From Bacteroidales bacterium (GTDB lineage: Bacteria; Bacteroidota; Bacteroidia; Bacteroidales; UBA3824): DNA of 64,000 nt. The first letter of the stretch is position 1, and each line of letters starts with the position of its first letter. The notes below the pieces were generated by a model, which was not told the DNA's origin, made no database searches, and saw only the letters and a list, made by a program, of their open reading frames with translations. The stretch covers positions 10,932-74,931 of the forward strand of contig JAEERW010000016.1 of assembly GCA_016286055.1 (NCBI GenBank). Reading direction: 5' to 3'. Below, one piece after another: positions 34,452 through 57,603 of this stretch. The position numbers and the translations under genes were made by a program.

Positions 34452-36911
34452 TTACCATCTGGTTTTAAGACGTCGCAACATATGTTGGAAATGTTTTTCA
34501 AAATAACTAAATTTCAGATACTTGGAAATAGCGAGACCCTTTTTGATATAATCGGAATGAGCATCGCTACCAATAGGAGAAAAAGCAGCTGCGATTTCGC
34601 AAAAGCGCATATTCCAATAATTGGTGGCGCAAATTGGAAAAGCATCGCGAATTTCGGTTATGCGGGCAAAAAACTCGTTAGCCTTTTTAGCATAGCCGAC
34701 TTTAAGCAGTGAATAAGAATAAAGGAGCTGCAACTGTTGATAATATTCATTTACCTGCTGGCGGTGACCGTGGGGTTTGTCGTTAAGAATCAACTCGCAA
34801 ATATCTTTTACCAGATGCCATTGCTCAGCGAGGGATAGCGAATCGGCAAGAATTATGTCACCGTAGGTAAAGGCTTGCGACAAGTTTTCGCTACGATTGT
34901 AATAATCACGGGCGAAAGTAGATATATAGTCTAATAGCGAAGCAGGAATACGGCCATCGCTCATAGAGTAATAAAGTACTTGAACAGACATAAACTCTAT
35001 GTAGCAAGTATTGTCGTCATGAGGAATATCGAGCGATTCAACCGCTGTAAAATACTCGTGCATAAGTTTTTGGTCACGGTTAAAATAGCTTTGCTGAATT
35101 TTGATGGTGTAAGCAAACATTTTGTCGCCCACCGACACCGAATTGTTGATATATTGTTTTAGTGCGTCGCCATAGAACGCGTTGAGCGAGTCGATATCAC
35201 AGAAATGCATAAAGTAATAGAACCTACCCGACTGCGTAGAAGCGTACACAGGAAGCACTTCAGCACGAATTTCGGGATACTTGCGCAGCTCAGTGCCAAC
35301 TGTATTTATCAACTTCTGCATAAAGGTTTGCTCTTCGAGGTCGGCAAAATTTTTATCCAAAATGTCAAAAATACCAGATAAGATGTCGGTTCTGTTGTCT
35401 TTAAAAGCGTATTTAACCAACCAAGAAACTATCTGGAACTTGAGCGAAGGATTACCACGATAAAAGTCGCTAATTTCGGCAAAGAGTTCACTATCAAAAG
35501 TGGTTTCTCTCAACCAATAGTTTGCCAACAAAAACTCGAACAATATCTGATGGCTGAACTTGATATAAGTGGATGTTTTCAAGAATTTATCCTCTTGCTT
35601 ATACTCAAATAACACACCTAACGAAACAAGTTCGTCGAATTCGTTACGGTATTCGGTAAGAAGATTTTGCATACTGTTCATCACCACAATATCGTTATCC
35701 AAACCATAATTGGTACTAAATAACAGAAAATCAATAAGTTTTAATTTACGTTCGCCATTTTCTGTACCAATGATGCGCCTACTTACAAACTCACGCAAAA
35801 GGTTGGCATCCGACACCACATTTTTATTGTCCTGCGCCAAAGATATATAAAGGTGTAGGAAATAAGGAATTCGGGTAATATTCATAATGCCGTCTTGCAT
35901 AATGTTAACCACCGACGAAGCATCGTATACACCACTGTTTCGCAAAATTTGCTCAACTTCCGCCATTTTTAACAGAGGGACATTGGTGGCAACGGGTGTG
36001 GATGTAGAAAATTCAACTCCATACCAAGTGGATTTGATTTCCATACTGTCGCTAAGGGCACGGCAGATATAGTTCCAAAGGTCAGGACGAAGTGTAAGAA
36101 CCACCTTAAACCAACGGTCTTCCATATTGGAGGCGATGAGCGACAGAATATTGTTGATAAGGTTGCGAGTGCTTCCGGCATTTCCCGAAAACTCACTCAG
36201 CCCATCGAAAACCAATACAATGCGACCCCTCATAGCAGCTGGGAAAAGTAGGAAATACTCTTTGAAACTTTTTTGGTCGCCATATCCTAAAAGCCTGAGT
36301 ATAAACTGTTCAACGTTGAAATCTTGATCTGCCACATTGTCGAGCACACCGCAATCCATAAACCAAACAATGTCGTCGGGATAGCGGGGATTTTCGCCCA
36401 AGAAAAAATCGTTGACCAAAGTAGATACAATAGTAGATTTGCCATACCCTCCCGGTGCAATAAATGCGGTAGCTGTTTTATCAGATTGCAGAAAGCCTTC
36501 CAACATTTCGGTGGCGAACTTTCGATGCACCATTTTTTTTACATCCACGCCCATACGGTTTTTAACAGAAAGAAAACTGTTGTAACTGATGGCGCGGGCT
36601 TTTTGGCGAATCTGCTCCCACTTTTCAATATTTTCGGCTTTTTTAGTAACGCTGTGACGGTTAGAAACAAAATCGTCCCAATCCTCAAATCCGATATATT
36701 TGCTCAGCGAGTTGAGAGTATATTTCGAAGGATTAAACACGCTCGCCACCAAATTCCAAAGGCGCTTGATGGTAGTTTCGCTGATTTTGTTGCCCGTAGC
36801 ATCAAAAACTACGTCAGACAGCGCAGAGCAGTCCTTGGCGTAAAGAATCTTTGCGCCAAACTTTTGTTCCACTGCTTCTTTAAGAAGGTCTATGTCGTCT
36901 AAATTGTCCAC
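34452..36911 (-). CDS. N-terminal HTH + STAND/NACHT-like P-loop NTPase with helical C-terminus
   Basis: HTH-like ISETTIKRLW..PSKYTLN.LS.YIGF.DW.DF; Walker A APGGYGKST; Walker B VLVFDGLSE; PYFLHLY. Confidence 0.75.
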   Translation of the reverse strand: MDNLDDIDLLKEAVEQKFGAKILYAKDCSALSDVVFDATGNKISETTIKRLWNLVASVFNPSKYTLNSLSKYIGFEDWDDFVSNRHSVTKKAENIEKWEQIRQKARAISYNSFLSVKNRMGVDVKKMVHRKFATEMLEGFLQSDKTATAFIAPGGYGKSTIVSTLVNDFFLGENPRYPDDIVWFMDCGVLDNVADQDFNVEQFILRLLGYGDQKSFKEYFLLFPAAMRGRIVLVFDGLSEFSGNAGSTRNLINNILSLIASNMEDRWFKVVLTLRPDLWNYICRALSDSMEIKSTWYGVEFSTSTPVATNVPLLKMAEVEQILRNSGVYDASSVVNIMQDGIMNITRIPYFLHLYISLAQDNKNVVSDANLLREFVSRRIIGTENGERKLKLIDFLLFSTNYGLDNDIVVMNSMQNLLTEYRNEFDELVSLGVLFEYKQEDKFLKTSTYIKFSHQILFEFLLANYWLRETTFDSELFAEISDFYRGNPSLKFQIVSWLVKYAFKDNRTDILSGIFDILDKNFADLEEQTFMQKLINTVGTELRKYPEIRAEVLPVYASTQSGRFYYFMHFCDIDSLNAFYGDALKQYINNSVSVGDKMFAYTIKIQQSYFNRDQKLMHEYFTAVESLDIPHDDNTCYIEFMSVQVLYYSMSDGRIPASLLDYISTFARDYYNRSENLSQAFTYGDIILADSLSLAEQWHLVKDICELILNDKPHGHRQQVNEYYQQLQLLYSYSLLKVGYAKKANEFFARITEIRDAFPICATNYWNMRFCEIAAAFSPIGSDAHSDYIKKGLAISKYLKFSYFEKHFQHMLRRLKTRW

Positions 36912-49536: not shown

Positions 49537-52005
49537 ATGGCAACAAAAAAGATTATCAATACTGCAGATTTGCACAAATACCGACCGCTAATATGGTACG
49601 GTGAACCTGTTCACGCAAGGTTTTCACAATTGGAAACCATATTACGTAACGGGTTAGGCGAGTTTTACGCCGACTTTTTGGCAGAACCACTCATTACTTC
49701 AGGACAAGCAAGATGGATGAGCGCAGCCGTGCCAAACGGGGTACCATTTACCCAACTCGAGCCTCAGAAACAAGAAATGGCAAGAGTGTCGCTTCAAAAT
49801 ATCCTCAACAAAATCAAAAACTTTGCGCAAGAACTATTACAAGCCGACGACCCTCATCAAAAAGAGCTCGGAGAACTATTGCTACTATCCATCGAAGTTC
49901 CTTCGCTCGACACTGTAATTGTTGACAACGAACGCATAGTGCTCACTATATGGGGATTCAGCAGTGAAGAATCTCAAAAAGTCAATTTCAAACTCGATGC
50001 TAAAATTGAAAAACCGGTGAATCCTGCGGTAGCCTCAGTGCCGCTATCAACACCAGCTCCCCCTACCCCACCCGAGCCGGAAACAACCACACAGCCAGAA
50101 CAAGTGGAGCAACCCACTCCGCCACCGCCGCCCACTATGCAGACACAGAGCGCAGGTGCAACACCTCCACCCCCACCGCCCCCACCGCCAACTAACAATA
50201 GCGGCAAGAAAAAAGGTCTTCCAGGATGGCTTTGGTTCTTGTTAGGACTTCTGCTTGCTCTCCTACTAGTTTGGCTCTACTTCCATTTTTTCGGTAAGCC
50301 CGATCCTAAGGACGAGGGCAACAACAACCAAACCGAGAACAACGACCCGACGAATCCGGGCGACTACACCAACATTCTACCCGAAAACCCTAACATCATA
50401 CCGCCTATCGACACCACTCGTGTGATAGTAGACCCCGACGACCCTGGTCAGCGTCGCGTATTCTCCGACAAGGTGAACATCGCTCTCAACAAAGGTGTCA
50501 ACCCGCTGACATTTGCTCAAAAACTCCACGACCAATATGCCGAGGAACTGAAAATCGTATATTGCGACACCGTGATCAAACTGATGCAAGTGGAAACCCC
50601 CGAAGGCCAATGGAAAGAGTGGATGACAAAGCTCAAAGCTATGGACGAGGTTAAGCTGGCATTTTCTAACACAATGTTTTCGAGCGAATACAAAGCCTCA
50701 GACCCAGCATTTAGCGACGCAAAAAAATCGTGGTATTTTGAAATGGTTCAGGCTTACAAAGCTTGGGATATCACCAGAGGTGATCCAAACGTAATTGTGG
50801 CTGTTGTTGACAACGGTTTCGATCTCACCCATCCCGAAATCAAAGACAAAATTGTTTCGCCCTACGACATCACCACAGGAAGCTCCACAGTAAAACCCTG
50901 CGGAGGCGAAGGCAACGAACACGGCACGCACGTGGCAGGCACAGCAGTAGGCAGTAGCGACAACGGACAAGGATTGTGCGGCATCGCTCCCAACTGCAAA
51001 CTTATGCCTATCAAGATAGCCGACGAATACGGCAATATGCAAACAATTTCGGTGGTGGCAGGCATACTCTACGCCATTCACCACAACGCCAAAGTGGTGA
51101 ACCTTTCGCTTGGAACATATTTTGGCGAAGATATAGTATCGATGCCCACAAGCCAGCAAAACCAGTTGGCACACAACGAATATGCCGACGAAGCCGCATT
51201 TTGGAGCGACCTTTTCCAGTTTGGACTCGACGAAGACATAGTGCTTGTGATAGCGGCAGGCAACCAAAACATTATCACAGGCATCGACCCCTTTGCACGT
51301 TCGCCCAAAACCCTCACCGTTTCGGCATTTCAAAAAGGCGGCAAACCCAAAGCTGAATTTAGCAACCACGGAGAGTTTGCCACCATCTCGGCACCGGGCG
51401 TGGATATTTACAGCAGCGTTCCAGGAGCAAAGTTTGAATACTTAGACGGCACAAGTATGGCAAGCCCAATAGTGGCAGGTGCGGCAGCATTAATGCGTTC
51501 GGCACATCCGCACATCAAAGCCGAAGACATAGTGGCTATATTGAAAAAGACCGCCAAACCGCTCAACAGCACACCCAAGATAGGACCGCTGCTGCAAATT
51601 GAAGACGCACTGAAAAGTCCCGGCGGAGTACTCATCATTCCCGACAACGCCACCAATGCCGACTTTGCGCAGGGCAAGTGGAAATCTACCACCGACCTCT
51701 ACTCCACCAAAGACTCGGTAGATATTATGCTCTACTTTACCTTAGAAAACGGTGGGAAAGGCACTATCACCTATTCACAATCCGACGGCAAAGATTTCCG
51801 AGCACCGCTTACCGTAACATTTGAAAACGGCAAATTGGTGATGGTGCAAAACAGCGAAGCTACCAACGATGACTATCCTGACGACGGATACCACCCATAC
51901 AAGTTCACCTGCAGCCAAGACGGCAACAAAACCGACGGAGCCAACTGCAAAGCAGAATACGAGGGCGAACCAAACGTTGGATTCAAAATGATAAAAATAC
52001 TTTAA
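49537..52005 (+). CDS. SrfA-like membrane protein with inserted S8 (subtilisin) peptidase
   Basis: Catalytic triad VAVVDNG, HGTHVAG, GTSMASP plus AAGN; Pro-rich linker and TM; N- and C-terminal domains resemble SrfA (from recall). Confidence 0.8.
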   Translation: MATKKIINTADLHKYRPLIWYGEPVHARFSQLETILRNGLGEFYADFLAEPLITSGQARWMSAAVPNGVPFTQLEPQKQEMARVSLQNILNKIKNFAQELLQADDPHQKELGELLLLSIEVPSLDTVIVDNERIVLTIWGFSSEESQKVNFKLDAKIEKPVNPAVASVPLSTPAPPTPPEPETTTQPEQVEQPTPPPPPTMQTQSAGATPPPPPPPPPTNNSGKKKGLPGWLWFLLGLLLALLLVWLYFHFFGKPDPKDEGNNNQTENNDPTNPGDYTNILPENPNIIPPIDTTRVIVDPDDPGQRRVFSDKVNIALNKGVNPLTFAQKLHDQYAEELKIVYCDTVIKLMQVETPEGQWKEWMTKLKAMDEVKLAFSNTMFSSEYKASDPAFSDAKKSWYFEMVQAYKAWDITRGDPNVIVAVVDNGFDLTHPEIKDKIVSPYDITTGSSTVKPCGGEGNEHGTHVAGTAVGSSDNGQGLCGIAPNCKLMPIKIADEYGNMQTISVVAGILYAIHHNAKVVNLSLGTYFGEDIVSMPTSQQNQLAHNEYADEAAFWSDLFQFGLDEDIVLVIAAGNQNIITGIDPFARSPKTLTVSAFQKGGKPKAEFSNHGEFATISAPGVDIYSSVPGAKFEYLDGTSMASPIVAGAAALMRSAHPHIKAEDIVAILKKTAKPLNSTPKIGPLLQIEDALKSPGGVLIIPDNATNADFAQGKWKSTTDLYSTKDSVDIMLYFTLENGGKGTITYSQSDGKDFRAPLTVTFENGKLVMVQNSEATNDDYPDDGYHPYKFTCSQDGNKTDGANCKAEYEGEPNVGFKMIKIL

Positions 52006-52038: not shown

Positions 52039-54570
52039 ATGAGCCAACCCATAATAACAACCGACATATCGTCGGTACGACCGGTATTTACCGCAGGCAC
52101 AAGCGAAAATATAAAGCGCTACAACCAATTGAAAAAACTTTTCGAGGACGGCAAAGAGTACACCGTACTTGCTAAACCTATTCCTGCTGGAAAAGATAAG
52201 ATTACTTGGCACACCGAGTTTGACGGCAATCCCGAACCATTCTCAAAACTTACTGAGGAGGAACAGAAAGTTGCCAAAGGGAGAATTAAATACCAGGTAA
52301 ACCGCATGTACAAAGCAGCGTACTACATTCTACGTAAAGAAAGCAAACAAGAAATTGACGAATTATTTGAGATTCTTGACTCCTGCATCGAAATCCCCGA
52401 CTACGACAACATCTTTAGAATCACAAATTCTAACGGAAAAGTAAACTACGTGCTCATCAGATGGGGATTCATCGGCGATGAGTTTAATTCTGGATCGGGC
52501 ATCATCAAACGTCTTGTCCCTCTCAAAGTAGACACTATCAAGGTTAAAGTGCTATACAACGGCTCTCCGGCAGTAGGCATAAAAGTAATAGTAAACCACA
52601 GAGGAAAAATCTACCAGCTTGAAACCGATAGTCTGGGCTATGCTTGCGTAGAGGATATTCCTTTAGGCGACAAGTTCACTGCCGAAACTGACGAAGAAAA
52701 CTCGTTGGTAGAATTCACATGCGACGGTAGCGACGAATATCACGTGCTCATTGGCACTAAATCGGCAGATATGGTTTTCAAAATTGTTGACAAAAACAAC
52801 AAGCCGATTCCCGGAGCAAGTGTTTCGTTTACTTTCGAAGGTAAAACATTCAACGAAATCGCCGACCAAAACGGGAAAATCACACTGCACGACATCCCCG
52901 AAAACACGGAAATCTTAGCCCGTCAAGATAATATATCGCAATCATTCGTGTGCGACCCGCAACGCGACGAGTACATATTCAACGGTTCAAGTCCGTCGGC
53001 CGAAATCGAAGCTCTTATAATAACCGAAAACGGCGAACCTGTTGACAACGTAGATATTCTTGTGGAATACAACGACAGTCGTCACTCCCTCTGCTCCGAC
53101 AAAAACGGCAAGATACAGCTCGATAATCTTCCAGTAAATTGCGATATCTCAATCACTTGCAACGACCACGATTTCAACCGTGCATCTATATCCTTTACCA
53201 CGCAAGAAGGCCTTAATATGGCAGAACTCAAGGTAAAGAAAAAAACTACCGAGGGCAAAATGACAATCAAGGTTATCGACGACCACGGCGGTATCATTTC
53301 AAACTCATTGATACGTTGCGAATTCGATGATTTCAAAACCGAAATTGTTACAGACGAAAATGGAGAAATTGTTATTGAAAAAGTGCCGTTCGACACCGAG
53401 GTTACTTGCACACAGATGATCGACGGTCTTGGTAGCCGCCGCCATAAGTTCCTATTTACCAAAGACAACGACCTTTACATTCTTAAAGGTTTGAAAATTC
53501 TCGGCAAGGCAGCCATCTCCGACCTCGAAATCCATATTCAGAACAAAAAGAAACAGGATATTCCCAACCTCCGCGTTACCATCAGCGACGGACACAAAGA
53601 TATCAACCGCATCACCAACGAGAACGGACGTGTGTATGTTAACGAACTGCCCCGCAGCAAAAAATACGTTATCACCACCGAATACAAAAACAAAACCACA
53701 CATACTGATTATGAATGCACCAAAGACAAGGAACTTGTACATTTGTTTGTTGGCCGCAGCCCGTGGTTGTTCCTCTTATGGCTGATACCGCTGCTCGCCA
53801 TTATTGGTTTTGCCATTTACAAATATGTGGTGCCTGTGCTTACCGAAAGCAATCCTGCTCCTGTGGTAGTGGCAGACAGCACCGACAACAACGCTCAGCC
53901 CGAACCTGAGCCGCAACCCGAGCCGCAGCCTGCTCCCGAGCCTCAGCCAGAACCCGAACCTGAGCCCGCTCCTGCTCCGGTAACAATTGTAAACCAAGGC
54001 ATTGTGCTCACCATTATGGACGAAGAATCAGGCAATCCCATAGCCGATGCTACCGTGCATTTGGAGTGCAAAGGTCAGGTGTTCGACGACCGCAGCGATG
54101 TAAAAGGTAAGGCAACAATCGACCAACTCAACGCCGACACCACCGACAAGGTAGATGTAAAAATCACCTCACAAGGTCACGACGAATTTATTGGCTCGTT
54201 TATGTACACGCCCAACAAAACCATTATCATCCCCAAAAAATCAATAGAATTTAGCGAGGAGATACTCCCCTGCGGCACCGAAATCCGTTCAAAAGGTTAC
54301 CACAGCACCGTTAAGACCTTCGACCTCAAAAAGAAGAAAGGCAAAGTGAAAATCTATTACCAGATGAACGACGTGCCCGACCAGATGGTAATCTACAAAG
54401 GACGCGCTTCGCAAATATCTGATTCTAAGATAATATACGACACCAAATTCGTAAAATTCTCTAAGATGATAACCATACCGTTCGACACCGAAGACGGACT
54501 CATTACCGTAAAAATCAACGGCGGCGACGACTCTAAAACACAGTGGTACGTAAAAGTAAATTGTCCGTGA
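52039..54570 (+). CDS. SrfA-like N-domain + ~5 prealbumin/Ig-like repeats + TM + PEPQ linker + C-terminal beta domain
   Basis: LAKP..ITW..F..L.EE.Q..A..CIEIP..WGF shared with neighbours; repeats V.D....PI....V...TD.NG. Confidence 0.75.
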   Translation: MSQPIITTDISSVRPVFTAGTSENIKRYNQLKKLFEDGKEYTVLAKPIPAGKDKITWHTEFDGNPEPFSKLTEEEQKVAKGRIKYQVNRMYKAAYYILRKESKQEIDELFEILDSCIEIPDYDNIFRITNSNGKVNYVLIRWGFIGDEFNSGSGIIKRLVPLKVDTIKVKVLYNGSPAVGIKVIVNHRGKIYQLETDSLGYACVEDIPLGDKFTAETDEENSLVEFTCDGSDEYHVLIGTKSADMVFKIVDKNNKPIPGASVSFTFEGKTFNEIADQNGKITLHDIPENTEILARQDNISQSFVCDPQRDEYIFNGSSPSAEIEALIITENGEPVDNVDILVEYNDSRHSLCSDKNGKIQLDNLPVNCDISITCNDHDFNRASISFTTQEGLNMAELKVKKKTTEGKMTIKVIDDHGGIISNSLIRCEFDDFKTEIVTDENGEIVIEKVPFDTEVTCTQMIDGLGSRRHKFLFTKDNDLYILKGLKILGKAAISDLEIHIQNKKKQDIPNLRVTISDGHKDINRITNENGRVYVNELPRSKKYVITTEYKNKTTHTDYECTKDKELVHLFVGRSPWLFLLWLIPLLAIIGFAIYKYVVPVLTESNPAPVVVADSTDNNAQPEPEPQPEPQPAPEPQPEPEPEPAPAPVTIVNQGIVLTIMDEESGNPIADATVHLECKGQVFDDRSDVKGKATIDQLNADTTDKVDVKITSQGHDEFIGSFMYTPNKTIIIPKKSIEFSEEILPCGTEIRSKGYHSTVKTFDLKKKKGKVKIYYQMNDVPDQMVIYKGRASQISDSKIIYDTKFVKFSKMITIPFDTEDGLITVKINGGDDSKTQWYVKVNCP
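53896..53978 (+). repeat. coding (Q/E)P-EP low-complexity repeat
   Basis: QPEPEPQPEPQPAPEPQPEPEPEPAPAP linker after the TM. Confidence 0.8.
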
Positions 54571-54612
54571 TAACTATCTGAAAACATATTAACAACATAA
54601 AAACCTGAATAT

Positions 54613-55779
54613 ATGAACATTATAGCCACAAAAGACCTCAACAACATACGCTATATGCTCGGTGCTGCCGAAACAGCCAAAGGTGTTTACAACCAAATAA
54701 AGGCGACGTTTCCCAACAGCGACGAGTATAAGATATTTGCCGAGCCAATCATATTGGAAAACGGCGCAAAGATAGCGTGGGCGTCGAACTACGACGGCAA
54801 GGGCGTGTGCTACGACCATCTCTCAGAAGAAGACCAGAGCATTGCCCGCGACATACTTTCGGCAAGCATCAAAAAACTCTTAGACAAGGTAAAAGAGTTT
54901 AACGATCAGTCTATCACCGATATGATGTACAAATGCATCGAAATTCCCGGCATGAACGACGTATATATGATACGCAAAAACGGCGAAACCAAAGTAGTGA
55001 TTGCCGAATGGGGATTTGTGCTTGATACTCCCGGCGCAGAGAAAGGTTTGCTTTACAAAATTTTGAATACACGTAAAATTCCCATGAAGTTTACAGTTGT
55101 TTACAGCGACGACCTTTCAATTGCTCCGTTTGAGGATATAATTTTTGAGTACGAAGGCAAGCCATTATCTTCTAAATCAGACGAAAACGGTATCATCGTT
55201 CTTGAAAAAATCAAAGAAGATTCTTACATCAAAGCGTTTGAACCCGATGGCGACCAAAAAATCAACATGCAGGGCTTCACTTGCTACGAAGAGGGCGCGT
55301 ACACCATCAAAGTAACTCCCAAAGGCGATATGCTCTTTGAGGTAACCGACCAAAACAAGAATCCTCTCAGCGGCAAAGAATTTATATTTGAATATAACAA
55401 TGAGAAGATAAAAGCCATCTCTGATGCCGACGGTCACATGACCTTAAAGAAGGTTAAAAACGGTGTTACAGTTCAAGCCTACCAAGAAGGTGAATCAGGC
55501 AGAGAGAATCAAAACACCTTTGTTTCTGACCGCAAAATAGAGAAGTATCCTATTGTAATAGAGATAAAAGAGGAGTTACCTCCTCCCCCTCCGCCGCCAC
55601 CGCCGGCTCGCAAAATGCGCTTTAAAGTTATCGACGAGAAAAACAACGTGGTAAAGAGTGCCGAAGTGATAGTAAAATATAACGGCATAACCAAAACCCT
55701 CTTTACCGATGCCGATGGCTACTGCGAACTTGAAGATGTTCCGATTGGCGCAGTTGTTGAGGCAAAGGCTAAAAAATAA
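54613..55779 (+). CDS. SrfA-like N-domain + Ig-like repeats, last repeat truncated, no TM
   Basis: FAEP..IAW..CIEIP..WGF; repeats; poly-Pro; ends EDVPIGAVVEAKAKK*. Confidence 0.75.
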   Translation: MNIIATKDLNNIRYMLGAAETAKGVYNQIKATFPNSDEYKIFAEPIILENGAKIAWASNYDGKGVCYDHLSEEDQSIARDILSASIKKLLDKVKEFNDQSITDMMYKCIEIPGMNDVYMIRKNGETKVVIAEWGFVLDTPGAEKGLLYKILNTRKIPMKFTVVYSDDLSIAPFEDIIFEYEGKPLSSKSDENGIIVLEKIKEDSYIKAFEPDGDQKINMQGFTCYEEGAYTIKVTPKGDMLFEVTDQNKNPLSGKEFIFEYNNEKIKAISDADGHMTLKKVKNGVTVQAYQEGESGRENQNTFVSDRKIEKYPIVIEIKEELPPPPPPPPPARKMRFKVIDEKNNVVKSAEVIVKYNGITKTLFTDADGYCELEDVPIGAVVEAKAKK

Positions 55780-55785
55780 TACACT

Positions 55786-55849
55786 TAGAGACGTGCCAAG
55801 GTGCGTCTCTATTTTCAATATTATGAGACGCACCATGGCACGTCTCTAC
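55786..55849. repeat. REP doublet (REPIN-like inverted pair of palindromes)
   Basis: TAGAGACGTGCCAAGGTGCGTCTCTA (55786-55811) and inverted copy GAGACGCACCATGGCACGTCTCTAC (55825-55849), whose reverse complement begins GTAG. Confidence 0.8.
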
Positions 55850-55881
55850 ATTTAAAACAACCTTATTTGAATTAAATAATT

Positions 55882-57603
55882 ATGGAAGGCTCAGGAAAAT
55901 ACACATACAACGAATCCGATTCGGAATATATCGTAAAAATCAAAGGCCGCAAACCATGGTGGCTTTTGTTGTTGTTGCTTTTGTTGCCGTTGCTTTTATT
56001 GCTGCCATTTGAAAAAGATGTAGTGTTTAAAACTGTAAACAAATCGTCCGGTGATGCTATACCCCAAATCAATGTTAAGTTTCAATATGTAAAACATACT
56101 TTTATTTCTTTCTCACCATTTGGATTTTGTGTAAAGGATACTATAAAATATGAGAATCAGAGCGACGAGAAGGGTGAAGCATTGTTTACAAAAGTAAAAT
56201 ATACTTTATTTCAGTCGTTATTTTACGGAGGCGAAAACACTGAGGCATCGGCATTTGGAGGTTGCTTAACCGGCGACACTATTACACCTCCTTTTGGTTC
56301 GCTCGGAGGACTTCTTGCCGATAAAATTGAATTAGGGTTTAAAGGTTACGACCTTGATTTTAAGGTAATTGATGCCGACGACAACGAGCCCATTCCCGAC
56401 GCAACAGTAAAGGCAGTAATATCAGGTCCTGAAAACCGAAACGACAACCAAAATTCCGACCCGGGTGGATACGCAATGTTTGAAAGCACTCCCCTATGCT
56501 CCGACATCACTGTTGTGGCACAAAAAGAGGGCTACGAACCCGACACAATCACCGGCGGTGTGGAGTCGCTTTTAAAAGGCGAATTTGGACGCACTCTGCG
56601 TTTAAAACCCGGCAAGGGGGCAGTTACATTCACAGTAAAAGATTTAGTTAGCCGTCAAACAATTCCGGGTGCAAAGGCAACGCTGATTACCACTAACGGC
56701 TCAATAAGTCTCACCACCAATACAAACGGCGTGGGCAAGGGCTTTTTCGACAGCATCAACGTTAACAAAACAATCAAAATTCAGGTAGAGAAAATCTATT
56801 ACTACGACACCACTTCCGCCGAATACACAGTGATGAAATACGAAAAACTTTCGGACGACGAGCGCACACTCTATATGCGTCCCAAGACCGAAAATCTTGT
56901 TTTCCGCGATGTGGATGCAGTATCTAACAAACCGATAGCAGGCGTGCAAAACGTGATTTTTATCAACGGTAAAAAAAATGCCACAGAGTATTCCAACAAT
57001 CAAGGCTGCTTTAACGTGGCGGGCTTAAAACCCGAAGACAAAATCAGCGTGGTGGCTACCAAAGGCGGATACATCAAAAACGAGGATAAGATTAAAAACG
57101 CCCGTACATCTACCCTCGACAACCAAGAAAAACGTGATATTCCGCTATTTGCAATTCAAGAAATGCACTCAAAACCACGCAAAAACTGCGGTGTGCACTT
57201 CTCAGGCACTCTCCTATCCGACACCGAAATCAAGGGTCATATCTCAAAAATCTACCAGCCCGACAAATACGGCGAATATGTTGGCGACGGAATGTACCCG
57301 AGTAATCAAGCCGCTTTCCCAAATGCAGTTCAGTATACATTTGATGCAATAGCAGTTGACAAAGGTACACATCTCACGATATATAGTCAACCAAACTTTA
57401 AAGGAAAGATTCTGTTAGACGTTACAGGTCCGGCTTTAATCAACAACGTTAAGTGGAAAGACGAATCGCGAATCAAAGACGTTAACGAAAAAACTTTCTC
57501 TGCTGAGTTTGAGGCAAACTTCCCGAAGAGTTGCCGCCGATGGAGCACCGAGAATATGAATCAATGGGACTACGGTTCGGTTAAAATCACCTGCGGAGAA
57601 TAA
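55882..57603 (+). CDS. membrane-anchored protein with prealbumin/Ig-like repeats and crystallin-like C-terminal domain
   Basis: TM PWWLLLLLLLLPLLLLLP; repeats V.D....PIP.A.V; FDAIAVDKGTHLTIYSQPNFKG resembles a beta/gamma-crystallin motif. Confidence 0.7.
   Translation: MEGSGKYTYNESDSEYIVKIKGRKPWWLLLLLLLLPLLLLLPFEKDVVFKTVNKSSGDAIPQINVKFQYVKHTFISFSPFGFCVKDTIKYENQSDEKGEALFTKVKYTLFQSLFYGGENTEASAFGGCLTGDTITPPFGSLGGLLADKIELGFKGYDLDFKVIDADDNEPIPDATVKAVISGPENRNDNQNSDPGGYAMFESTPLCSDITVVAQKEGYEPDTITGGVESLLKGEFGRTLRLKPGKGAVTFTVKDLVSRQTIPGAKATLITTNGSISLTTNTNGVGKGFFDSINVNKTIKIQVEKIYYYDTTSAEYTVMKYEKLSDDERTLYMRPKTENLVFRDVDAVSNKPIAGVQNVIFINGKKNATEYSNNQGCFNVAGLKPEDKISVVATKGGYIKNEDKIKNARTSTLDNQEKRDIPLFAIQEMHSKPRKNCGVHFSGTLLSDTEIKGHISKIYQPDKYGEYVGDGMYPSNQAAFPNAVQYTFDAIAVDKGTHLTIYSQPNFKGKILLDVTGPALINNVKWKDESRIKDVNEKTFSAEFEANFPKSCRRWSTENMNQWDYGSVKITCGE

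Follow-up and report, generated by a model that had tools for sequence, protein, structure and literature searches.

We report that two neighbouring open reading frames (ORFs), ORF1 and ORF2, in the 64,000-nucleotide stretch of a Bacteroidales genome analysed here (contig JAEERW010000016.1; hereafter the window) represent a split SrfA-like bitopic protein, divided inside an immunoglobulin-like (Ig-like) repeat. This split is ancient, positionally exact and conserved, a conclusion that we regard as close to certain, and it recurs among relatives, making it a real feature and more than a local oddity. We assign a probability of roughly 0.55 to the full interpretation, in which ORF1 and ORF2 together make up an SrfA-like bitopic inner-membrane protein whose two halves would reassemble by beta-strand complementation. 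A first-pass annotation of the window had noticed the broken repeat. Beyond that annotation, the present analysis places the proteins in an SrfA-like family, establishes the split as old and recurrent, and finds the module made of the ORF2 tail and membrane helix at the head of four other proteins of the same genome. The coordinates of all features are collected in Table 1.

Pfam identifies CarboxypepD_reg/SpaA-type Ig-like repeats in ORF1, in ORF2 and in the gene directly upstream, which encodes a fused paralogue (gene 52039, named, like gene 49537 below, after its first position in the window). A complete repeat is a seven-stranded sandwich of about 80 residues, as seen in the earlier repeats of ORF1 and in those of ORF2, whereas the last repeat of ORF1 falls short of this. 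Its residues 338-380 match positions 5-49 of the 82 in the CarboxypepD_reg profile, so that roughly its last third is missing, and its score of 30.2 bits lies below the cut-off of 32.3 (PF13620/PF17802-type test). The AlphaFold2 (AF2) model of ORF1, which was built on an alignment of 13 orthologues, likewise has seven strands in the complete repeat at residues 237-316 and five in the last repeat (332-338, ARKMRFK; 351-356, EVIVKY; 359-364, ITKTLF; 370-377, YCELEDVP; 383-386, EAKA). The mean predicted local distance difference test score (pLDDT) of this model is 81.5, with means of 82-90 over the 10-residue blocks from residue 331 onwards. The Pfam coverage and the AF2 models thus bear out the earlier observation that ORF1 stops within a repeat and that ORF2 opens with segments resembling the missing strands, and they give ORF1 the character of a pilus-type acceptor domain that lacks its C-terminal strands. 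ORF1 has no membrane segment by hydropathy.

The N-terminal tail of ORF2 carries two segments that we propose as strands 6 and 7, whose alternating pattern is kept in 13 orthologues. The basic residues on the N-terminal side of the membrane helix (positive-inside rule), together with the bitopic topology reported for SrfA in a preprint (bioRxiv 10.64898/2026.09.18.752743), suggest that this tail lies in the cytoplasm. In an AF2 model of the fused paralogue (alignment of 10 sequences, 52039 and nine fused homologues; mean pLDDT 78.5, 83-89 in the blocks covering residues 490-570, overall predicted template modelling score (pTM) 0.30), strand 5 is KYVITTEY, strand 6 KTTHTDYE (552-559) and strand 7 KELVHLFV (564-571), and the equivalents of the ORF2 tail are strands 6 and 7 of a complete repeat, immediately before the membrane helix. 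The order YVITTEY, KTTHTDYE, KELVHLFV, GRSPW and helix in 52039 is colinear, to within one residue, with VVEAKAKK at the end of ORF1 followed by GKYTYNES, SEYIVKIK, GRKPW and helix in ORF2, and the proposal that the two ORFs together parallel this single protein therefore holds. Furthermore, when a juxtamembrane hidden Markov model (HMM) built solely from 86 fused representatives was scanned against the 8,280 six-frame ORFs of the genome, its best match was the N-terminus of ORF2 (open-frame residues 7-43; E = 9.4e-11), followed by 52039 and then by four further proteins of the genome (C5:372817, C33:80064, C2:59612 and C2:60752). The resemblance of the tail to the fused forms is thus well beyond chance.

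We sampled 41 genomes, comprising the one that contains the window, 24 others of its genus and 16 of other genera. ORF2-like genes were found in 27 of them (the genome itself, all 24 other genus members and two of the 16 from other genera), with ORF1-like genes in the same 27. Open frames of the ORF2 orthologues span about 570-613 aa. An ORF1-type open frame is present in 23 of the 24 other genus genomes, measuring 388-398 aa in 22 of them and 269 aa, truncated by the contig end, in one, and none is fused; the remaining genome, which is 61% complete, has the 52039 type only. Across the 20 junction-bearing genus loci in which the junction was compared (L001-L020), ORF1 always ends at the same residue (...VE[AV].A.K before the stop, with one variant, ...VEAIVK), and it is always adjacent to a separate ORF2 with the same two strand-like opening segments. 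The split persists down to about 40-50% identity; the spacers of these loci are of 15-167 nt and unrelated in sequence, and the frames of ORF1 and ORF2 agree in six and differ in six of the first 12 loci.

Purifying selection on both halves is strong, which answers the dN/dS check (non-synonymous over synonymous substitution rates, expressed as omega) that the first-pass annotation had proposed. Nei-Gojobori estimates against three close relatives give omega values of 0.010, 0.014 and 0.058 for ORF1 and of 0.019, 0.068 and 0.085 for ORF2. Within the truncated repeat, the same relatives differ by 15-19 synonymous and zero non-synonymous changes, and in distant pairs dN is 0.125-0.15 there vs 0.33-0.38 in the rest of ORF1, which makes the truncated repeat the most conserved part of that protein. 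ORF1 belongs to a 90%-identity cluster of 61 proteins; lengths among the 15 listed are 388-391 aa, and the sole name given there is 'hypothetical protein [Bacteroidales bacterium]'.

Relatives elsewhere exist in both forms. An HMMER scan with ORF1 against 1.84 billion representatives returned 235 matches (106 at E ≤ 1e-10), the best 150 of which were used; 121 representatives with a complete N-domain, together with the three window proteins, gave 124 rows. By a crude hydropathy test, 88 of these rows have a membrane segment, 29 are short and have none, and seven are long with none detected, at least two of the seven being visibly missed membrane segments. Alignment of ORF1 with the fused proteins P0018, P0025, P0030 and P0056 extends as far as the last residue of ORF1, after which these proteins continue into ORF2-like sequence (...KARARK-QRKRGKKK-FLFTNPNNDHIIKIRK...WW and membrane helix; in one example ...KVKARARK-QRKRGKKK-FLFTNPNNDHIIKIRKPISLWW and helix). 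ORF2 in turn is 34-36% identical over 417-509 aa to the C-halves of fused forms, including 35% over 509 aa to that of P0036. The short forms of several clades end just past the strand-5 motif V.V.A, with a Lys-rich tail. On a FastTree phylogeny of the N-domain, in which 108 of the 124 rows could be labelled (the other 16 being nine short rows with unclear ends and the seven long ones), the split or membrane-bound state changes at least eight times, with at least four changes forced by well-supported branches, and none of 500 shuffles was as low. Split and fused forms thus appear, from these sequences, to have interconverted at least four to eight times. A distant genome (L023) encodes a 509-aa SrfA-N protein with strands 1-6, and the next gene starts with MEHTIKIKKFTWWW and a membrane helix, so here the cut falls one strand later.

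The family assignment comes from the N-terminal domain. The NCBIfam model SrfA_fam (NF040486; curated cut-off 150 bits) matches the N-terminal 155 or so residues of 49537, 52039 and ORF1, at 115.2, 31.6 and 30.8 bits, respectively; all three scores are below the cut-off, and these are the only matches in the genome. The SrfA-C part of the model (profile positions 277-435) is matched by 49537 alone and is absent from ORF2. According to the preprint cited above, SrfA begins with a cytoplasmic, pseudo-kinase-like SrfA-N platform, which a disordered linker joins to a single membrane helix and, beyond it, the periplasmic SrfA-C domain, and SrfA binds SrfB and then SrfC (bioRxiv 10.64898/2026.09.18.752743). 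The corresponding bitopic layout of N-domain, single membrane helix and periplasmic C-terminal part is found in 49537, in 52039 and in ORF1 and ORF2 taken jointly; ORF1 alone has no helix. Judging from its sequence, 49537 is an SrfA that carries a subtilase, the Peptidase_S8 domain (PF00082, 162 bits) lying in the periplasmic part between the NF040486-matching N-terminal part and the last 165 or so residues.

SrfB and SrfC partners are also encoded in this genome, at a distance from the window cluster. Their operon lies on another contig (L025) and reads, in order, a 231-aa ORF with a weak zinc-finger match, SrfB (1011 aa), a 341-aa ORF, SrfC (953 aa) and a 1393-aa PKD-domain protein; the 341-aa ORF has no family match, and there is no SrfA gene beside srfB-srfC in this locus. 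SrfB occurs in 21 of the 41 genomes, all of them among the 27 with ORF1/ORF2-like genes, and in two other genera it shares a contig with arrays of SrfA-like genes. The array L024, in genome G039, holds at least seven SrfA-N-bearing genes that are soluble, fused or followed by genes for the hairpin and membrane helix, interleaved with unrelated small ORFs; its contig also carries an SrfB gene, some 7 kb upstream of the array.

We propose the following arrangement. In the single-chain form, found next door in 52039 and in many distant relatives, a cytoplasmic SrfA-N module is followed by a cytoplasmic string of Ig-like repeats, one membrane helix and periplasmic domains. In the present lineage the coding sequence was divided long ago within the last cytoplasmic repeat, at the Lys-rich loop after strand 5, leaving strands 1-5 with ORF1 and strands 6-7, joined directly to the membrane helix, with ORF2. 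The ORF2 tail would then insert, in the cytoplasm, as the two missing strands of the last ORF1 repeat, and would thereby tether the soluble SrfA-N module, presumed to be the platform for the SrfB and SrfC encoded on the other contig, to the membrane-anchored periplasmic module. Since the split is old and lies inside a beta-sandwich, and since both halves have been kept intact, the halves probably reassemble by such strand sharing; docking in trans by strand complementation is probably the mechanism at work, and the best supported, judging from the sequences and from the model of the equivalent strands in cis.

The first-pass annotation had offered two alternatives, a tolerated fission and a recent disruption; the first, in which the short ORF2 peptide would complete the fold and dock the soluble half to the membrane, fits everything seen, and the second is refuted. 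A recent disruption would mean that a single gene had been broken by insertion of the doublet of repetitive extragenic palindromic (REP) units found in the spacer, with one or both halves now decaying. The doublet does sit exactly at the junction and the two ORFs do share a frame in this genome, but the orthologue comparison that had been suggested, with and without REP units, shows all 20 genus loci to be split, with 14 of the 20 spacers devoid of even a single unit and one spacer only 15 nt long. The break is maintained at 40-60% protein identity, omega lies at 0.01-0.09, and the listed members of the ORF1 cluster are of nearly constant length. A pseudogene would be marked by a lineage-specific break and relaxed selection, and neither is seen; with the same-residue split, purifying selection and REP-free spacers taken together, we give disruption next to no weight. 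It is also very improbable that stop-codon read-through or frameshifting joins the two ORFs into one polypeptide. Recoding of this kind could be imagined from the shared frame in the window and from one locus (L009) in which a single stop and 15 nt separate the ORFs, but the window spacer holds three in-frame stops, spacer length and sequence are not conserved, and the start of ORF2 is separate and identically placed in every orthologue. The variable frames and multiple stops exclude conserved read-through or frameshifting.

A more serious rival is that the two proteins are functionally linked with no domain being reconstituted, a possibility that we consider unlikely overall but well worth keeping in view. 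The hairpin and helix of ORF2 would then be a generic N-terminal anchor, and ORF1 an independent SrfA-N paralogue in the cytoplasm, which might regulate SrfB/SrfC in soluble form or act as their decoy and which simply has a shorter variant of the last repeat. Several observations favour this and weigh against reassembly. No ORF1-like or SrfA-N gene lies beside any of the four tail-anchored paralogues described below (two on C2, one each on C5 and C33); in genome G039 the gene after the best ORF1 orthologue encodes an unrelated permease, and the orthologues of ORF2 are on another contig; and the ORF2 tail is only averagely conserved, with distant-pair dN of 0.33-0.49 vs about 0.44 in the rest of ORF2. 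Taken together, these make a free-standing hairpin anchor with an independent ORF1 a serious rival, and AF2 also models the five-strand end of ORF1 on its own with good confidence. Further caution comes from the SrfA-N assignment of ORF1, which scores 30.8 bits against a cut-off of 150, and from SrfB, which was not found in six of the 24 pair-bearing genus genomes, three of these six being 90-98% complete. The alignments behind the two AF2 models are shallow (13 and 10 sequences), confidence is good only locally in the case of 52039 (pTM 0.30), and the tree, being quick and unrooted, does not tell fission from fusion. On the other side, the break falls within a repeat and not between domains, and colinearity with fused relatives extends across it; conservation within ORF1 is highest in the truncated repeat, the short forms of several clades end at the same strand, and ORF1 and ORF2 lie next to each other in all 20 loci of the genus.

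The four tail-anchored paralogues open with the same two-strand tail, followed by KKKKFPWW and a membrane helix, and their periplasmic parts all match the C-halves of SrfA-N-bearing fused relatives in other organisms. Because all four occur without an N-half, the hairpin may be a self-sufficient juxtamembrane element. A more speculative extension of the reassembly model, and one that we hold to be doubtful, is a plug-and-socket scheme in which a soluble ORF1 adaptor, consisting of the SrfA-N platform and an open five-strand socket, would dock onto any of five tail-anchored proteins, namely ORF2 and the four paralogues, each offering a two-strand plug and a different periplasmic module. Such a scheme would allow alternative SrfA-like transmembrane assemblies to be built combinatorially, an Ig-like fold being completed non-covalently in the cytoplasm, as a natural counterpart of engineered split-domain tags.

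The pair resembles SrfA of the SrfABC system (NF040486) in its SrfA-N-like domain without signal peptide, its single membrane helix and periplasmic C-terminal part, the presence of srfB and srfC in the genome and, among the 41 sampled genomes, the restriction of SrfB to those with these genes. It differs in its scores below the curated cut-off, in the insertion of two to six Ig-like repeats after SrfA-N and ahead of the helix, in the absence of an SrfA-C lipocalin-like end from ORF2, in the location of srfBC on another contig and in the division of the protein into two genes. Donor-strand pili are polymers assembled with a single donated strand outside the cytoplasm. Strand complementation or exchange is described for the type V pili of Bacteroidia and for chaperone-usher pili (e.g. 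PMC13655056). These share with the pair an Ig-like fold that is short of its C-terminal strand or strands and is completed, as proposed here, by a strand of another polypeptide; the present case, known from sequence and a cis model, would differ in using two strands, in the cytoplasm, for a 1:1 tether to a membrane helix. SpyTag/SpyCatcher is an engineered split CnaB2 domain that reassembles spontaneously (PMC6539128, PMC5814910). It too derives from a small Ig-like domain of adhesin type cut before its last strand, and the ORF1 repeats, like its parent, resemble pilin and adhesin Ig-like domains (Foldseek; Pfam SpaA), but SpyTag/SpyCatcher is man-made and locked by an isopeptide bond, whereas the split here is natural and showed no isopeptide triad, although no search aimed at one was made. 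In the literature searched on SrfA/SrfB in Bacteroid lineages and on gene fission with strand complementation, we found no description of split SrfA-like proteins.

If the halves do reassemble, they would constitute a natural and evolutionarily stable beta-sandwich that is divided between two genes and completed in trans in the cytoplasm, by which a soluble module, serving in signalling or as a platform, would be coupled to a periplasmic module anchored in the membrane. This would provide a testable architecture for the poorly understood SrfABC-type systems of Bacteroidales, show that a break inside a domain can be tolerated and can serve repeatedly as the point of gene fission or fusion, and supply a naturally evolved pair of two-strand tag and acceptor. 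Should they not reassemble, the pair would still be a clean example that a split within a repeat need not mean a pseudogene.

The REP unit in the spacer is a 26-nt imperfect palindrome, GTAGAGACGYGCCATGGCRCGTCTCTAC, with 29 copies (at most two mismatches) and four doublets in the 4.18-Mb genome. These dispersed copies and doublets indicate a small REP family, in keeping with the short, dispersed and often paired palindromes known as REP elements; the chance expectation for the cores in the spacer was 0.00 (100 shuffles). As in REP and bacterial interspersed mosaic element (BIME)-type repeats, the palindrome is imperfect, intergenic and paired, and one unit, the first together with a T-run, scores as terminator-like. 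Here, however, the repeats are incidental to the split: among the 20 orthologous spacers, three have a doublet, three a single unit and 14 none, and since REP hairpins are confined to six close relatives, they arrived later than the split. The doublet is thus a late passenger in the spacer and a bystander to the division of the gene. A 10-nt direct repeat (55778-55787 and 55898-55907) was considered as a target-site duplication and rejected, its second copy lying inside ORF2 and not at the REP edge. The A-rich start region that had been noted before ORF2 was found as an AT-rich leader just ahead of its ATG. A sigma-70 promoter scan gave five sites vs 3.7 expected, under a model that is uninformative for this phylum.

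Runs of ruminant gut RNA libraries contain up to 43% of the words sampled from the junction region. One RNA contig of 1,693 nt, 97% alike, covers 54516-56208 without gaps and with 58 differences, taking in ORF1, the REP doublet and the beginning of ORF2; another, from a second study, covers 55609-56633 and bridges the junction in a variant without 32 nt of the second REP unit. These contigs, which may contain DNA, are a hint of expression and no proof of a single transcript. RNA contigs that stop at a REP unit, and parts of the stretch left uncovered, were not used as evidence, the loose ends being explained by REP copies elsewhere.

Table 1. Positions of the features discussed. Plain numbers refer to the window; all others are given as genome, contig and coordinates, with G000 denoting the genome of the window.
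Feature	Position	Strand	Description
ORF1, soluble N-half	54613..55779	+	388 aa; ends ...EDVPIGAVVEAKAKK before the stop; SrfA-N-like domain (about residues 1-155), two complete 7-strand Ig-like repeats, poly-Pro linker, truncated last repeat
Truncated last repeat of ORF1	55606..55776	+	residues 332-388; strands 1-5 only; Lys-rich end ...VVEAKAKK
Spacer	55780..55881		102 nt; three in-frame stops, ORF1 and ORF2 in the same frame; REP doublet, cores 55788-55809 and 55825-55846, mutually inverted
ORF2	55882..57603	+	573 aa; starts MEGSGKYTYNESDSEYIVKIKGRKPWW, then Leu-rich membrane segment
ORF2 N-tail, predicted cytoplasmic	55882..55959	+	residues 1-26
Proposed strand 6 of ORF2 tail	55894-55917	+	GKYTYNES
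Proposed strand 7 of ORF2 tail	55921-55944	+	SEYIVKIK, then basic GRKP
ORF2 single membrane-spanning segment	55960..56007	+	WWLLLLLLLLPLLLLL; read from sequence
Periplasmic part of ORF2	56008..57603	+	CarboxypepD_reg-type repeats (Pfam PF13620, 56 bits) and conserved C-terminal domain of about 140 aa
Fused paralogue 52039	52039..54570	+	843 aa; SrfA-N-like domain, Ig-like repeats, membrane helix, Pro-rich linker, periplasmic domains
Last cytoplasmic repeat of 52039	53515-53751	+	residues 493-571; 7 strands, then directly the membrane helix
Membrane helix of 52039	53764-53847	+	residues 576-603; starts at W576
49537, third SrfA-like gene of the cluster	49537..52005	+	822 aa; SrfA-N-like domain, Pro-rich linker, membrane helix, Peptidase_S8, SrfA-C-like end
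Tail-anchored paralogues (four)	G000:C2:59612-60748, C2:60752-62470, C5:372817-374496, C33:80064-80807		headed by hairpin and membrane helix
SrfB	G000:C35:34451-37423	minus	PF07520, 776 bits; SrfC just downstream (PF10139, 537 bits)
srfB-srfC operon (L025)	G000:C35:26002-38144	minus	another contig
SrfA-N gene array (L024)	G039:C685:20000-39999		
Second ORF1-like genes	G010:C122:78689-79870, G020:C191:26981-28162, G002:C201:43226-44191		directly upstream of the ORF1 orthologue

Several further features of the pair were noted. When the complete ORF1 model was compared by Foldseek, all matches were generic tandem Ig-like adhesins and pilins, which did not resolve the N-domain, and ORF2 gave no match to NCBIfam or, as a profile, to PDB sequences. 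Conservation in ORF2 is highest in its C-terminal region (residues 430-573 or so; window 57169-57600, NCGVHFSGTLLSD...), where invariant columns form long runs, and these last 140 or so residues have no Pfam, NCBIfam or PDB sequence match. The poly-Pro linker before the last ORF1 repeat (window 55570-55600) varies in orthologues from PPPPPPPPP to none, and a poly-Gly ORF opposite it is a mirror artefact only. Against close relatives, dS is 0.64-0.97 in the last ORF1 repeat and 0.33-0.70 in the ORF2 tail, mostly above the gene averages of 0.22-0.47; this rise around the junction (55606-55959) may reflect recombination around the REP insertion or small-sample noise. Elsewhere in the window, an 819-aa ORF on the minus strand (34452-36911) has a weak NACHT match of 23.4 bits, below the cut-off of 26.7. 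Finally, some genus members have a second soluble ORF1-like gene directly upstream of the ORF1 orthologue, with open frames of 401-476 aa that are 32-39% identical.

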